Source of the DNA: a virus
Taxonomy: Duplodnaviria; Caudoviricetes
DNA: 42,527 bases
Reading direction: 5' to 3' (one strand)
Virus record (IMG/VR): IMGVR_UViG_3300026299_000100
Span: 1 to 42,527 of that record
In this document: in pieces, positions 16,511-25,517 of the stretch
Layout of the letters: every line of letters begins with the position of its first letter
How positions within the stretch are numbered: position 1 is the first letter of the stretch
Position numbers and translations under genes: made by a program
Notes under the pieces: model-generated
Database searches by the model: none
What the model was told of the DNA's origin: nothing
Seen by the model: the letters and a program-made list of their open reading frames with translations, nothing else

Positions 16511-16585
16511 TGGTTGCGGGGGCGGGGATCGAACCCGCGACTTCGGGATTATGAGTCCCGCGCTCTACCGCTGAGCTACCCCGCG
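16511..16585 (-). tRNA. tRNA with CAT anticodon (Met-type), encoded CCA
   Basis: CGCGGGG TA GCTC AGCGGTA GAGC G CGGGA CTCATAA TCCCG AAGTC GCGGG TTCGATC CCCGC CCCCGCA A CCA folds as a full cloverleaf. Confidence 0.96.
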
Positions 16586-19614: not shown

Positions 19615-20106
19615 TCATGGCGAAGCTGCACCCGACAGATATTCCGCGATGATCTCCAGCACTCCGGCACGATCGGTGTCCGAGAGGCCAAGGAAGGGCC
19701 GGGCAGGAATGGTGCCCCAGGGGATCGGCCCGCCTCGGGACGTGCGGCCGAATGCACCCTGTGCAGCGCCGAACTGCATCACGGCGGCATAGTTCCTCGG
19801 CGAACCCCAGCGCACGGATGTCTCGGTGGCCTCGTAGTGGATCAGGCTCGACAGGCTGCCCGATGGCCCGAAGAGCGGCCGGTCATCGACCCTGTCGCCG
19901 CGCGCCCTATAGCCCGCCTTCGTCACCTCGGACTTCGGGGCCCAGGCGGTGCCGTCAGGGCCTGCGCCGGTTCCGAACCGTGCCTTGGTGGACTTGATCA
20001 GGAACTCGCCGACCTCCTGCATCGGCCGGGTCAGGTCACCCAGCTGCCGCGCCAGATCGTCCAGGGCGGCAGTGACGGCGGCGTCATTGATTTCGAGCGT
20101 GAACAT
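19615..20106 (-). CDS. Mu gpG-like virion morphogenesis protein
   Basis: RF....GPDG..WAP, YAAVMQFG, IPARPFLGLS. Confidence 0.92.
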   Translation of the reverse strand: MFTLEINDAAVTAALDDLARQLGDLTRPMQEVGEFLIKSTKARFGTGAGPDGTAWAPKSEVTKAGYRARGDRVDDRPLFGPSGSLSSLIHYEATETSVRWGSPRNYAAVMQFGAAQGAFGRTSRGGPIPWGTIPARPFLGLSDTDRAGVLEIIAEYLSGAASP

Positions 20107-20122
20107 CGTTATCCTTCCCGGC

Positions 20123-20203
20123 GGGATAGCGACATCGGAAAGTCGGAGTCCGGTTCGCCACCTCGGTGCCGCAAATGAGGGATTTCCGCCCCTCCGCTAT
20201 CCC
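20123..20203 (-). ncRNA. Candidate cloverleaf / kissing-loop RNA overlapping the gpF stop codon
   Basis: GGGATAGC/GCTATCCC closing stem; GAGGG/CCCTC hairpin (loop GCGGAAAT); central hairpin; GAC/GTC hairpin (loop TTTCCGAT); loops complementary CGGAAA/TTTCCG. Confidence 0.5.
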
Positions 20204-21426
20204 AAACTGCCCAACAGCACCTCAAGCAGCCCCCCGCGCTGCCGGCCCCGCAGGTCCGACATCCGCGGGCGGTAGGCCGACACGATCACATTGGGAGCCT
20301 CTTGCCCGTCAAGACGGCCAAACGCCATGTCGATGGCCAGTTGCGGCACCCGGTCGTCACCAGGCAGGACATAGATGAGCCGCCCCGTCCGCTTGTCCAG
20401 CAGGACGGCGATACGGGCCCTGATCGCATCGGGCAGGCCCGCCCAATCCTCCGGCGTCAGGGCATCGCCGGCCGCGTGGTGCCTGCGCGCCTTCGGACCC
20501 TGGATCAGGCCCGGCATCACCAGCAACTCGGCCGACCGCAGCGGCATCCCGCGCGCGGCCAGGATATCCGCCACCTCTCTCTCGATCGTTCCCACCAGCC
20601 CCGGATCGTGGCGCGCTCCCGACTTCACCTGGTCCACCCAATCCGGCCATGCGCGCTGTATCTGCGGCTGTACGGATTGACCGAAGTCGATCCCCAGATC
20701 CAGCGGCAGGCGGGCGATCTGCCGGGCTGCGGCACTGATCAGGTCGGTATTCGTGCCCCCCGGTGCGTAGCCCCAACCCCTGTCGATCCCGACCGGCGCG
20801 CCGGTCTTCGGGTCGATCCGGTCCCAGCCCGGCGGCAGCTGCTTGTCGGGATCGCCCCCCAGGCGGCGGACGCCGGCAGCTGTTCGGGCACCGACGATGT
20901 AGCAGGTGCAGCCCCAGCCGTTGGGCGCGAAATGCGTCCGCCAGAAGGGATGCGAGGGATGTGCCGCAAACCCGTGCCAGGACAGGTGGATGATGCGCGG
21001 CTCGCGCGCATTGCCATGCAGGTAGACCCAGAAGGCGAAGTCACCCTCGATGAGCTGGGCATGGCGCCCGGCGTGATAGGTGGACGCCAGGTTGGTGCGG
21101 TAGATGGTCCGGGTCCGCCAGGCCTCGCCCTTCAGGGTGCCTTCGCCGGTCCAGCCGTGCCAGCCATGCCTGGCGACCGTGGCCCGGAAATCGCGGCGGA
21201 AATCCTCCAGGCTGGTGCCCTTGCTGATGGCCTTGTCCACAGCGGCGGCCAGATCGGACAGCAGGTCCGCCTTCATGGCGCCTGCCACCATGAAGGCGCG
21301 GTCGTGGAATTGCGGTTCGACATCCGTCCAGGCCCGAGTGCCGCGTCTGTCGTCCCGCCGCAGCCGCCATGCGGCCAGTTGCTGGGCGAAGGGCTGGCCG
21401 AAGATCGCGGTCAAGCTGTCAGCCAT
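20197..21426 (-). CDS. Mu gpF (MuF) minor head protein with C-terminal nuclease-like extension
   Basis: RAFMVAGA, WRTRTIYRTN, H..W.G, PNGWGCTC, GIDRGWGYAPG; extra ~150 aa with H...LT..DW..LP...LIYV...NVIVSAY, resembling PBECR-type domains. Confidence 0.85.
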   Translation of the reverse strand: MADSLTAIFGQPFAQQLAAWRLRRDDRRGTRAWTDVEPQFHDRAFMVAGAMKADLLSDLAAAVDKAISKGTSLEDFRRDFRATVARHGWHGWTGEGTLKGEAWRTRTIYRTNLASTYHAGRHAQLIEGDFAFWVYLHGNAREPRIIHLSWHGFAAHPSHPFWRTHFAPNGWGCTCYIVGARTAAGVRRLGGDPDKQLPPGWDRIDPKTGAPVGIDRGWGYAPGGTNTDLISAAARQIARLPLDLGIDFGQSVQPQIQRAWPDWVDQVKSGARHDPGLVGTIEREVADILAARGMPLRSAELLVMPGLIQGPKARRHHAAGDALTPEDWAGLPDAIRARIAVLLDKRTGRLIYVLPGDDRVPQLAIDMAFGRLDGQEAPNVIVSAYRPRMSDLRGRQRGGLLEVLLGSLG

Positions 21427-23086
21427 CCGCCTCGTCCTCGACCGCAGCCCGGCCACCGGCCCAGCCCGCCAGCACCCCCTGTGCCAGGATCAGCGACAGC
21501 TCTGCCGTGTCGATCCTCTCGAAAGCCGCCAGCACCATTTCGCGGAACTCCTCCAGCGATCCGGCCGTCTGAAGCATGGCCTCTACCTGGTCGACCATCG
21601 CCGCGACATGGGGTGCTGCCTCGATCTCCACCCGGCCAGCCAGCGCCCCGACATGCTCGCCCACCGGGTTTCGCCGTGGGAGGGCCATAGAGGCCCCCTC
21701 CGCGTTCAGGGCTGTCGTTCCCCGCAGATCGGCCTGACCCCGTTTAAAAACGCCGGGTTTGCCTTTAATCGCGCGATCCTGATCCTCGGGGTCGGGCGGC
21801 TTCCCGTCTGGCGGCTCCTCGGGTGCGGATTTGGCGCCGGCAGGGGTCATCAGCCGGGCTTTCGGCTTGGGGGCAGCCAACCCGAACTTCTCGCGGATGT
21901 CCTCCTGGCTGACCTCAAGCCCGCGGTCGATCATCGGGCCGATGGCGGTGGCAAAGGCCGCAAGGTCTTCCTGCTCCGGGCGGTCGATCTTCAGGCGGGG
22001 ATAGGCTTTCTGAGGGCCGTGATTGACCTGGACGAAGACCCGGACAAGATCTCGGTTCAAGATCGCTGCAAGGGCCTTGGCATCTGCGCGCTCGATATCC
22101 TCCTGAACCTGCCGGTGCTCCTTGCCGGATCCCAGACCGCCCGTCACCGCATCAGTTGTCGCGGTCTGTCCCAGCACGGCTTTCGATACCTGCTGGTCGA
22201 GCCAGTCCGACCGCTCTTTGTACAGTGCATGGGCCGCCCCGACATTTGCCGCTTCAATGAACTCGATCATCATGGATTCGGGGATCATCGCCGCCATGTC
22301 GCCGGCAATGTTGGAGATCGCCCGCATCAGCGTGGCCTTCTCCGCCTCGGTGGCGCCGGGATGATATTTGCCCAGGCGCACCGGTTGGGCATAGGTCTGG
22401 GTGAAGATGGTCCAGTCGCGCTGGGTGAACGCCTTGAACATCCATGCCCAGGCCGCGACGCGGGCAATGCCGGATCGCAAGGGCAGGCCGGACTTGGCAG
22501 CGATCTGGGCGAAGATGAAGTGCCCACCCTCCATGGGCTTCAACTGGCCGTTCTGGTCCCGGATCATCGGAGTTTCGAGATCCCGAGGATCGAAGCCGAA
22601 CCAGCGTGGATCGCGGCGCAGAAGCTGTTTCGGCCAGTGCTGCCCTTCCGAGTGATCCCAGTCGATCTCGGTGACGCTGTAGCCTTTGCCGATGCAGTCG
22701 AGGATGTGGAAGATTTCGTCGGACAATTCATCGCGCTGCAGCCAATCGCGGACCTCCTCGGCGATGGCCTCGTCTTCCGAGCTGTCCGATGCGGCCTCGA
22801 CCGTGATGTCCAGCTGCGCGACCGCGCGCCGGCGGGTGCCCAGCACCCCGACATAGTGCAGATCGCGCTCCTCGATCGTTTCGGCCAGTTCCAGATAGCG
22901 CAGCCCGTCGCCGGCATCGGCCTCGCGCAGGATTGCCGCCAGCCGGCCAGGCGTCATCCCGTCGGCCGGATATCCGGTCAGCGGCGAGCGCACCCCGCCC
23001 AGCGTGGCGGAGGCAACCTCGGTGGTCAGCGTGGAAAGCCGGATCGGTCGGCCATAGGCGTCGAGCAGCTGGGGGGTGCGGGCCAT
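21419..23086 (-). CDS. Portal protein (Mu gp29, DUF935)
   Basis: LLDAYGRP, EERDLHY, KGYSVTEI.W, P.RLGKY, SKAVLGQT.T. Confidence 0.93.
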   Translation of the reverse strand: MARTPQLLDAYGRPIRLSTLTTEVASATLGGVRSPLTGYPADGMTPGRLAAILREADAGDGLRYLELAETIEERDLHYVGVLGTRRRAVAQLDITVEAASDSSEDEAIAEEVRDWLQRDELSDEIFHILDCIGKGYSVTEIDWDHSEGQHWPKQLLRRDPRWFGFDPRDLETPMIRDQNGQLKPMEGGHFIFAQIAAKSGLPLRSGIARVAAWAWMFKAFTQRDWTIFTQTYAQPVRLGKYHPGATEAEKATLMRAISNIAGDMAAMIPESMMIEFIEAANVGAAHALYKERSDWLDQQVSKAVLGQTATTDAVTGGLGSGKEHRQVQEDIERADAKALAAILNRDLVRVFVQVNHGPQKAYPRLKIDRPEQEDLAAFATAIGPMIDRGLEVSQEDIREKFGLAAPKPKARLMTPAGAKSAPEEPPDGKPPDPEDQDRAIKGKPGVFKRGQADLRGTTALNAEGASMALPRRNPVGEHVGALAGRVEIEAAPHVAAMVDQVEAMLQTAGSLEEFREMVLAAFERIDTAELSLILAQGVLAGWAGGRAAVEDEADG

Positions 23087-24762
23087 CAGATCATTCCCCT
23101 GATCCTGTGCCCCAGCGGCGGGGCGTAAATGTCGCGGGCGTCCTCTTCGTCGGCCGTCATGCCGCTGCCCGTGGCGGTGGTCTCGCGGGGCAGCGGGGCC
23201 GGTGTGTAGCCGTATTCGACCCAGCGCATGCGGGTCGCGTAATCGGCCAGGGCGCAGGCGATGGCATAGTCGCCATGCCGCTTCTTCTTCTGGCCCGATC
23301 CCTTTTCGGCGGCCGATTCCGTCCGCTCGGGCGGCACCCGCGCGATGCCGCGGATCACCTTGACCAGGCGAAGGTCGCCGGCGTGGTCGGCGTCGCGGAT
23401 CAGCGCGATGTGGTCATCCTCGAACCGCGTCTTCAGCGGCGGCATTTCGATCCGGTACCACTCCTCGGAAAACTTGATCGCCATGATCAGGCCGGCGCCG
23501 GAGAGCGGGTCCTCACGCAGCCCGTAGATCCGGCCCATGTCCTCGGCCACGGTCCAGCCCATGCCGGTGGCATCGAAGGCCGCACCCACCAGCCGGTGGC
23601 GGACGTGATCGAGGACGGTCCTGCAGATCAGCTTCTGTTCGATGCCCGGCACATTGCGCAGCTCGTAAGCCAGCGCCTCGCGGCGTTTAAGGTTCTGTTC
23701 AATGGCCATCAAAGACCCGGTCGTCAGGTCGCGGATCCGGCCGAAGTCCGATCCGAAGGCATAGCGCGGCGACAGGTCCAGCGCCTTCAGCTGGGCCTTC
23801 AGCTTCGTCAGGAACGGCTCCATCAGTGAGGCCTGCCCGACCTTGTCGAGGAAGAGGTAGTTTGCTGGCAGCTCCAGCCGCAGCACCTCCTGCTCGACCG
23901 TCATCCGCGCTTCGATCAGCGGGCCGGGCAGCCAGCTGCCCGAGGACATGGACGGGATGCAGAACAGTTCCTCGTCTGCGCCGTCACCGTAGATGTCGAT
24001 GATCTCTTGGCGCCAAGCCGCCTCTTCTTCTGCAGACCATGCCTTGCGGGCCCGGAACGCCACGCGCTGGTAGAAGCCATCCTGCAGCGCCTGGTCGAAG
24101 TCGATGCGGATGTGATCGCCCTTTTCCCGGCCAGCCAGAACCGCCTGGATCGCGACATTGAAATCGTTGTCGACACCGTCATGGGTCGAGCAGACCACGA
24201 CCTGACCACCCCAGATCAGGAAGGCCAGCGCCGCCTTCAGGAGCTCCTTCAGGTTATCGACGAAAGCCGCCTCGTCGATGATGACCACGCCCTGCTTGCC
24301 CCGCAGCCCGCGCGGAGCCGAAGACAGCGCCATGACCTCGAACCCGCTGGCGAACTTGATCCGGAAGGCGTTGATCGACTTGTCACCGTCATCCTGGTCG
24401 AACAGCGTCTCTTCGACCTCGCCGGCCGCGCTGTCGAAGGCACGGGCCCACATGGCGCAGGCATCCACGAACTCGCGCGTCATCTCCCGGCTGTAGGAGA
24501 TGTACATCACATCCATGCCACCGGCGACACGCTGGCGGCCGGCGCGCAGGACGGCATAGGCAGCAAGGCCCCAGGTGAGCCCAATCCGACGGCTTTTCTC
24601 GATGTAGCAGAGCTTCGATCCGCCATCGAGGAGGGCGACGGTTTTCGCTTGATAGGGCAGCAGCACCGAAGGCAGACCCGCGGCCTTCACCTCGTCCGGG
24701 ATCGCCTGCATGGCGGCGGCGCGGGCGTCGGCCCACTGCTTCTCGGTCAGGAGGGCGGTCAT
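23086..24762 (-). CDS. Terminase large subunit (Mu gp28-like), full length
   Basis: LLPYQ, KSRRIGLT (Walker A), VIIDEAAF (Walker B), CSTH; nuclease motifs GSDFGR, FDATGMG, HGDYAIA. Confidence 0.95.
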   Translation of the reverse strand: MTALLTEKQWADARAAAMQAIPDEVKAAGLPSVLLPYQAKTVALLDGGSKLCYIEKSRRIGLTWGLAAYAVLRAGRQRVAGGMDVMYISYSREMTREFVDACAMWARAFDSAAGEVEETLFDQDDGDKSINAFRIKFASGFEVMALSSAPRGLRGKQGVVIIDEAAFVDNLKELLKAALAFLIWGGQVVVCSTHDGVDNDFNVAIQAVLAGREKGDHIRIDFDQALQDGFYQRVAFRARKAWSAEEEAAWRQEIIDIYGDGADEELFCIPSMSSGSWLPGPLIEARMTVEQEVLRLELPANYLFLDKVGQASLMEPFLTKLKAQLKALDLSPRYAFGSDFGRIRDLTTGSLMAIEQNLKRREALAYELRNVPGIEQKLICRTVLDHVRHRLVGAAFDATGMGWTVAEDMGRIYGLREDPLSGAGLIMAIKFSEEWYRIEMPPLKTRFEDDHIALIRDADHAGDLRLVKVIRGIARVPPERTESAAEKGSGQKKKRHGDYAIACALADYATRMRWVEYGYTPAPLPRETTATGSGMTADEEDARDIYAPPLGHRIRGMI

Positions 24763-25505
24763 TCGCGCATCCTGACGCAGCCGGGCGTGCTAATTGAGGG
24801 GATGCAGAACAGTTCTTCGTCGGCGCCGTCGCCGTAGAAGTCGATGATGCCTTGCCGCCACTGCGCCTCGGCCTCGGGCGTCCAGGTCTTGCCGGTGACC
24901 AGGGCGATACGTTGATAGAGGCCCTGCTGCAGCGCCTGATCGAAGTCGATCCGCAGATGGTCGCCCTTCGAACGGCCTGCCAGCAGCTCCTGAATGGCCA
25001 CGTTGAAATCATTGTCGACGCCGTCATGGGTCGAGCAGACCACGACCTGACCGCCCCACATCAGGAAGGCCAGTGCCGCCTTCAGAAGCTCCTTCAGGTT
25101 ATCGACGAAGGCGGCCTCGTCGATGATGACCACACCCTGCTTGCCGCGCAGGCCGCGAGGAGCCGAAGACAGCGCCATGATCTCGAAGCCGGAGGCGAAG
25201 CGGATCCGGAAGGCGTTGATCGCCTTGTCGCCATCATCCTGGTCGAAGAGCGTCTCCTCGACCGCGCCGGCCGCGCTGTCGAAGGCGCGGGCCCACATGG
25301 CGCAGGCATCCACGAACTCGCGGGTCATCTCGCGGCTGTAGGAGATGTACATGACGTCCATGCCACCGGCAGTCTTCTGCCGGCCGGCGCGCAGAACGGC
25401 ATAGGCCGCAAGGCCCCATGTGAGGCCGATCCGGCGCGACTTTTCGACATAGCAAAGCTGCGATCCACCATCGAGAAGGCCCACCGTCTTTGCCTGATAG
25501 GGCAG
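23954..25505. repeat. Diverged ~0.7 kb direct repeat (23954..24660 and 24799..25505)
   Basis: Colinear at a constant 845-bp offset with many third-codon-position differences. Confidence 0.92.
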
Positions 25506-25517
25506 GAGGGCGGTCAT
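24759..25517 (-). CDS. ATPase-domain-only paralogue of the terminase large subunit
   Basis: ~88% aa identical (28 differences in 236 aligned residues, hand count) to the N-terminal part of 23086..24762; ATPase motifs intact; no nuclease domain; ATGA-coupled at both ends. Confidence 0.85.
   Translation of the reverse strand: MTALLPYQAKTVGLLDGGSQLCYVEKSRRIGLTWGLAAYAVLRAGRQKTAGGMDVMYISYSREMTREFVDACAMWARAFDSAAGAVEETLFDQDDGDKAINAFRIRFASGFEIMALSSAPRGLRGKQGVVIIDEAAFVDNLKELLKAALAFLMWGGQVVVCSTHDGVDNDFNVAIQELLAGRSKGDHLRIDFDQALQQGLYQRIALVTGKTWTPEAEAQWRQGIIDFYGDGADEELFCIPSISTPGCVRMRE

Follow-up and report, generated by a model that had tools for sequence, protein, structure and literature searches.

In the excerpts considered here of Jamet 2017 (PMC5576092) and of the Apk2/IapK study (PMC12226406), MuF polymorphic toxins have a MuF N-terminus, a variable toxin C-terminus, a place in the head module and a partner encoded directly downstream. 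MuF proteins are thought to be present in the head at 2–3 copies, according to the available part of PMC12226406, and their injection is a hypothesis in that of PMC5576092. Characterised colicin-like RNases, as covered in the accessible sections of bioRxiv 2026.08.28.747851, are mostly tRNA cutters. We analysed a 42,527-nt stretch of DNA (IMG/VR record IMGVR_UViG_3300026299_000100), hereafter called the window, whose gpF locus fits the MuF layout with a MuF N-terminus, an exchangeable C-terminal domain and a position in the head module of a temperate phage. Unlike the toxins in the excerpts of those two papers, the window gpF has an antisense RNA gene as its candidate partner and no small immunity ORF downstream.

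Genomic setting of the extended gpF

Profile matches to transposase, transposition protein, repressor, terminase, portal, protease I, gpT and tail genes mark the window as a Mu-like prophage, and its late genes lie on the minus strand. The head-tail operon also contains a canonical tRNA-Met (CAT) gene (16511–16585, minus strand), flanked by the post-capsid ORF and the head-tail adaptor, and two neighbouring ORFs of 558 and 252 aa (23086–25517, minus strand) each match terminase large-subunit profiles. The proteins of the gpF–gpG region have the following features.

20197–21426, minus strand: gpF (MuF minor head protein), 409 aa with a C-terminal extension, from ORF and translation (PF04233, E 4.7e-11; phrog_220, E 1e-72)
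20896–21249, minus strand: MuF domain (Pfam PF04233), residues ~60–177
20200–20742, minus strand: MuF-C/PBECR-type C-terminal domain, predicted colicin-like BECR RNase (profiles of homologs, AF2, VIA, Atlas)
20479–20493, minus strand: Lys312-x-x-Arg315-His316 in the helix ahead of the BECR core, predicted catalytic (His316 codon, 20479–20481)
20278–20292, minus strand: Asn379 and Ser383 in the terminal strand, predicted second half of the active site
19615–20106, minus strand: gpG (virion morphogenesis; PF05069, E 9e-31), its 5' end overlapping the −35 box of the predicted antisense promoter

The gpF–gpG gap measures 90 nt. An initial annotation of the window had noted extra C-terminal residues on gpF, and an extension of ~170 aa past MuF was indeed found. 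Its statement that no ORF separates the two genes stood except for a 38-aa ORF with a TTG start (20225–20109, minus strand), the sole ORF across the gap; gap lengths among homologs vary by non-multiples of three.

A predicted RNase domain of the PBECR/MuF-C kind

The PBECR/MuF-C assignment of the extension, made initially from motif resemblance, was upheld by profile matches of homologs, VIA and Atlas neighbours. Window gpF matched PF18819 with an E of 0.08, under the cut-off, and homologs exceeded the PF18819/PF18812 cut-off of 27.6 bits (L007, 29.9 bits, E 6e-7; Sakai ECs4971, 36.7 bits). The first Atlas match (0.93) carries MuF_C on 32% of its members with a low recognition score, and its neighbours are MuF_C/PBECR2/3. 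Profile search with the domain retrieved 929 clusters at 50% identity (E up to 0.001). Among 18 close homologs, R315, H316, N379 and S383 are invariant and K312 is nearly so.

Structure prediction, a check already proposed in the initial annotation, gave an AF2 model of the domain with a pLDDT of 95 (H83–91, H97–108, E112–116, E122–125, E134–138, E151–157), in which a helix is followed by a four-stranded sheet, the BECR topology. K312, R315 and H316 sit on helix H83–91 and S383 on the last strand, E151–157, which is the layout of PBECR/colicin-like RNases in the available text of PMC5512222 and bioRxiv 2026.08.28.747851; the catalytic role of K312/R315/H316 is predicted from these sources. Foldseek against the PDB with the domain model returned nothing at E 1e-3, and a PDB sequence search with the domain returned no match. 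The wide VIA structure search gave weak matches, the top rows being mostly BECR RNases with Z of only 3–4.2 (BrnT, Z 4.2, rmsd 3.8, 75 aligned; CdiA-CT NC101, Z 3.6; colicin D, Z 3.4). The C-terminal domain is a predicted RNase; the weak fold matches and the position of the window protein under the MuF_C cut-off count against reading its partner as an RNA antitoxin.

A conserved tRNA-shaped RNA in the gpF–gpG gap

The gap and the 3' end of gpF hold an RNA element on the plus strand, with the arm order P1, 2-nt joint, P2, P3, short joint and P4 leading directly into P1, which is the arm order of tRNA.

20123–20203, plus strand: tRNA-shaped four-way-junction RNA gene, class A, antisense to gpF/gpG, 5' end predicted at 20122–20123 (covariation, model R1)
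20123–20131 pairing with 20195–20203, plus strand: P1 (acceptor-like), 7 of 8 pairs changed on both sides
20134–20154, plus strand: P2 (D-arm-like), stem 20134–20138/20150–20154, loop CGGA 20144–20147, 4 of 5 pairs changed on both sides
20155–20174, plus strand: P3 (anticodon-arm position), free in length and sequence among homologs, drawn by eye from the alignment and outside the covariation count
20177–20194, plus strand: P4 (T-arm-like), stem GAGGG/CCCTC nearly invariant, loop UCCG 20185–20188 pairing with the P2 loop

The 8-bp closing stem of the initial annotation, GGGATAGC/GCTATCCC (20123–20130/20196–20203), is present and holds the gpF stop codon. By itself, the window sequence has a fold of no more than chance quality (z −1.85 and −1.99; 10 and 8 of 200 shuffles as good), so the case for structure rests on covariation in the 3' flanks of homologous genes, where the initial annotation had advised to look for it. 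Across 38 homologs, 96% of 832 cells are paired and 13 of 22 pairs changed on both sides, a level that was reached by none of 500 shuffles, which ignore the kinship of the homologs, and slid controls are 39–54% paired. This bears out a conserved tRNA-shaped RNA at the position of an immunity gene. The RNA is placed on the plus strand because the closing stem has 21 G-U versus 4 A-C cells, all four A-C cells at its two outermost positions. The earlier placement of the RNA within the gpF mRNA was thus reversed: it lies on the opposite strand as a separate gene with a predicted promoter.

The two loops make contact through CGG(N) in the P2 loop and (N')CCG in the P4 loop, in the window C144–A147 with U185–G188, and this kissing pairing holds in 37 of 38 homologs. 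Its variable position is Watson-Crick in 37/37 (A-U 20, G-C 13, C-G 4; shuffle mean 15.8) and, over all loci, in 56/56 unique cores, a count that leaves out six chance-motif loci. The 6-nt kiss first proposed, CGGAAA/TTTCCG, was abandoned; among the 38 homologs only the window can form it, and it uses the 5' strand of P2. Covariance model R1 has one match at the element in its own genome (E 5e-13), and a second match (E 0.19) was rejected as it looks like chance in coding sequence. At the window element, Rfam 15 gave no match and ARAGORN called no tRNA; the RNA has no T-loop consensus, no CCA and a variable P3, and is therefore no canonical cloverleaf.

Predicted antisense promoter and transcription

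The following promoter is predicted upstream of the RNA.

20087–20115, plus strand: predicted sigma70-type promoter, TTGATT (20087–20092), 17-nt spacer, TATCCT (20110–20115), 8 of 12 consensus matches

The TATCCT −10 box ends 7 nt ahead of P1. A promoter/terminator scanner reported nothing at the element with its cut-off of 9 consensus matches, the candidate having 8. TANNNT is found upstream of the RNA in 29 of 37 homologs, also where the next gene is other than gpG (L120, L096, L131). The −35 box lies within gpG codons and is thus weak evidence by itself, and its persistence in loci that lack the RNA counts against the RNA-antitoxin reading.

Transcription from this position was seen in a homologous locus. 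In prophage Sp18 of E. coli O157 Sakai, the dRNA-seq start list (Dataset S1 of PMC7547250) has an antisense start at 5,058,595 (minus strand; enrichment 14.58), 1 nt before the first stem. Sp18 gpF keeps K..H, and a close allele is 31% identical to the window domain. With 9 minus-strand starts in the 38.8 kb of Sp18, a match within 2 nt has a chance probability near 0.001. This start belongs to a T-loop-class homolog and not to the RNA of the window, which counts against the RNA-antitoxin reading. A sister allele is annotated in RefSeq as 'tRNA-OTHER' on the same strand, and related gaps occur in 227 of 5426 E. coli genomes.

RNA and predicted catalytic histidine are absent together

The locus sample consisted of the best 80 viral and best 80 genome loci by MuF part, three isolated phages and the twin of the window (L001), with extensions clustered. 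It yielded 100 non-redundant PBECR-type domains, of which 95 were counted; the five dropped had no gpG match or a gap of >260 nt, and one of them, L072, is frameshifted. Among the dropped loci, L209 and L187 have an RNA by eye, and L165 and L194 lack both His and RNA. With gap length as a proxy for RNA presence, a gap of at least 50 nt was found in 85/85 His-bearing loci, 1/10 His-less loci and 1/20 loci with a short gpF, the sole His-less exception (L138) having a 36-codon ORF. A strict antisense promoter was present in 51/85, 0/10 and 0/20 loci, respectively. By eye, every His-bearing gap except that of L163 contains a recognisable RNA class. In L163 (2641–2920), a 75-aa ORF takes the place of a recognisable RNA behind a His-bearing class B domain, which may reflect a return to protein immunity. 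For class C the second His was scored, a choice made after seeing the data; with the first His there are three exceptions, L080 and L194 (His, no RNA) and L187 (RNA, no His).

The His-less rows are scattered on three domain trees, the second and third of which are quick trees, and need 4, 4 and 2 changes, of which 3, 2 and 1 are forced by starred branches. In phage Mu, gp30 has no K..H helix and its gene overlaps gpG by 4 bp; the sister of gp30 (support 100/100) keeps K..H and has a tRNA-like RNA. The available text of PMC5512222 describes the phage Mu version as inactive. Gaps behind other kinds of gpF extension hold an ORF of 57–113 aa, in 7/7 of the HExxH (metalloprotease) type, a motif identified by eye, and 3/4 of the ART type. 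ORFs of at least 50 aa occur in 4 of 87 PBECR-type gaps, and none of that size in the other 83, the window included. As far as sequence comparison reaches, this evidence favours an RNA antitoxin at the position of the immunity gene.

RNA classes, orphan copies and breadth

Different PBECR subtypes carry different RNA folds. ARAGORN called a tRNA on the antisense strand in 6 of 24 tested loci, with unrelated anticodons; sister RNA classes that are called tRNA keep a GTTCGA T-loop. Rfam gave no match for classes B and C (16 loci), and one class D copy is a weak tRNA-Sec match. Model R1 is blind to classes B, C and D and to the phage B3 RNA, and gives no sign of common descent. The RNAs of phage B3 and a Rhizobium prophage (L087, L214) have other kissing sequences, and further RNA classes were seen in L141, L151, L158, L161, L170, L183 and L200 (longer class B variants). 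A point against the RNA-antitoxin reading is that K..H-type domains occur with RNAs of two different folds, kissing-loop and T-loop, which leaves protein–RNA specificity a supposition.

Protein-blind scans recovered class B RNA at 79 loci (73 unique), of which 66 adjoin a class B domain, five are orphan and two truncated; where visible, class B domains beside class B RNA carry the His (65/65). The class A motif adjoins a His-bearing class A domain at 32 of 42 viral loci (not deduplicated). In metagenomes, 41 class A loci (30 unique) were found, 12 adjoining a His-bearing domain and four adjoining remnants or another subtype. The remaining 14 of 30 are without a PBECR match within their flank of 0.15–0.9 kb, and 8 of these 14 are in tandem with another class. 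RNAs without an adjacent domain fit orphan immunity and break strict one-to-one pairing. Arrays in which two or three different RNA classes follow one another, with no cognate domain, were found in L233, L238, L239, L242, L250, L258, L265, L273 and L333, several of them ahead of gpT or protease I, or behind a regulator-like gene, of Mu-like phages. The strictly cis-encoded RNA of the initial annotation does not hold for such copies, which lie away from any cognate domain. Motif matches of 14–25 bits in L104, L107, L110, L119 and L122 were taken as chance.

Fifteen matches to Pfam PBECR3 plus MuF_C were obtained in 401 genomes of the phylum. Of the 14 with flank, 12 have an antisense promoter 50–150 nt after the domain (1.14 expected) and none has a sense promoter, the range of 50–150 nt and the threshold having been chosen after viewing the loci. 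In the giant virion-type proteins of L215, L227 and L228, with frames of 1986, 2886 and 2449 aa, a compact stem-loop and antisense promoter lie in frame right behind the PBECR3/MuF_C domain, and the 'xLQLP' peptide of L227 and L228 is read from the strand complementary to an RNA hairpin common to both loci. Domains ahead of embedded RNAs in L111 and L112 are PBECR-like by eye and were not counted, as they had no match in Pfam or our own profiles.

Several loci have unusual arrangements. At L120 (659–1440), a PBECR-like gene of 213 aa stands alone, with no MuF part; behind it come a class A RNA and the promoter TTGACA-17-TACAAT. L125 has three divergent RNA copies. In L251, L253, L248, L237 and L100, remnants of domain C-termini, each with an RNA behind, are stacked after another domain–RNA pair, and some of these stacks are beside CRISPR-like repeats. 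In L295, an insert of ~1 kb separates gpF from a class B RNA that still adjoins gpG.

Proposed function and alternatives

The RNA behaves like an immunity gene in that it persists only where the predicted active site is intact, occupies the slot of a small ORF, has its own host-type promoter and occurs as orphans and cassettes. We consider it likely (probability about 0.7) that this tRNA-mimic RNA is an antitoxin that binds and neutralises the predicted virion-borne RNase in place of a protein immunity gene. The domain would be an active tRNase that is packaged, injected with the DNA and bound by the RNA, which would act as a decoy for the gpF RNase domain and neutralise it. Characterised colicin-like RNases mostly cut tRNA, which makes a tRNA-shaped decoy a plausible inhibitor. 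As the T-arm-like stem and the junction are conserved and the arm at the anticodon position is variable, the protein probably reads the elbow and the acceptor side. A host-type promoter independent of the late operon would make the RNA available in lysogens and early after the DNA enters a cell, such that it could protect the producer during late gene expression and lysogens from the toxin of incoming kin; orphan copies might protect against toxin subtypes of other phages.

Joint loss of RNA and His would also be expected if the RNA were a cis-antisense silencer of the type I kind, pairing with the gpF–gpG late mRNA including the stop codon and lowering leaky toxin expression in the lysogen. 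The RNA is fully complementary to that mRNA, overlaps the gpF 3' end and has its own promoter. We nevertheless regard silencing as improbable, because orphan arrays of different classes lie away from any gpF and have no complementarity there, the kissing contact and tRNA elbow are strictly kept although needless for mRNA pairing, and non-RNase toxins in the same slot use no RNA. Loss alongside the His and the link of RNA class to domain subtype are compatible with any binding partner, and so would suit an RNA that serves as activating partner or preferred substrate of a domain that need not be toxic, perhaps packaged with gpF as a ribonucleoprotein; the available part of Iyer 2017 (PMC5512222) suggests that PBECR domains may spare host tRNA. 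Such a cofactor or cargo is less probable still, as immunity better accounts for the RNAs that occur alone or in tandem with no domain, and for the way the RNA and small immunity-like ORFs replace one another.

The least probable of the three alternatives is that the RNA acts as a general decoy against defence: mimicking tRNA, it would absorb anticodon nucleases of hosts or competitors and merely travel with the PBECR gene. The resemblance of several classes to tRNA genes with random anticodons and the existence of orphan copies agree with such a decoy, which leaves unexplained both the repeated loss alongside the His of the phage's own domain and the link of class to subtype. Returning to the antitoxin reading, we see evenly balanced odds for a wider picture in which immunity made of RNA takes part in the polymorphic-toxin arms race of phages. 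Decoys derived from tRNA would have diversified into several folds, each matched to a PBECR RNase subtype. Their genes would follow the domain in antisense orientation, in some cases within the reading frame of a giant virion protein, and phages would accumulate different classes in orphan arrays for use against competitors. If the antidote came only from intact injected DNA, the RNase could punish a cell that destroys that DNA.

If correct, the antitoxin reading would explain how PBECR/MuF-C RNases are tolerated without an immunity ORF and would provide an example of RNA-based immunity to a delivered polymorphic toxin. It would also account for some prophage 'tRNA-OTHER' calls, suggest that what looks like a linker after the PBECR domains of large virion proteins is in fact a gene for an antisense RNA, and add several new structured RNA families that are absent from Rfam 15.

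Comparison with known systems

Our literature search, with subscription papers mostly outside its reach, returned no paper that connects MuF or PBECR domains with a partner RNA. The viral structured-RNA catalogue of PMC10690425 may hold these RNAs unnamed; in the part considered, entries for Phage_Mu_F in its file 5 name genes located downstream of a candidate RNA. Besides the shared layout, the loci resemble MuF polymorphic toxins, as presented in the excerpts of PMC5576092 and PMC12226406, in their C-terminus remnants with partners behind (here L251 and L253). They differ from the PBECR/MuF-C domains of Iyer 2017 (PMC5512222) and bioRxiv 2026.08.28.747851 by the RNA partner, which is absent from the available portions of those descriptions.

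The toxins of type III toxin–antitoxin systems have MazF-like or HEPN folds, whereas the toxin candidate of the window has a predicted BECR fold and is fused to a virion protein. With type III systems (ToxIN, CptIN, TenpIN; AvcID; AbiF/RCd22, bioRxiv 2025.04.15.648962), as far as the accessible accounts go, the locus shares a protein toxin, often an RNase, that is held, here by prediction, by a structured RNA with a pseudoknot-type contact. ToxI-type antitoxins, compared by description from the same partial accounts, are co-transcribed repeats processed by the toxin, whereas the window has one tRNA-shaped RNA gene, antisense and under a predicted promoter of its own. Complementarity of the RNA to the toxin mRNA, as in type I systems, is true at the window and untrue for orphan copies. 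The bacterial Y RNA YrlA is a tRNA-like RNA. With tRNAs and tRNA-like RNAs (RefSeq 'tRNA-OTHER') the window RNA shares the order of acceptor, D, anticodon and T arms; unlike tRNA, its class replaces the elbow with a 4-bp kiss.
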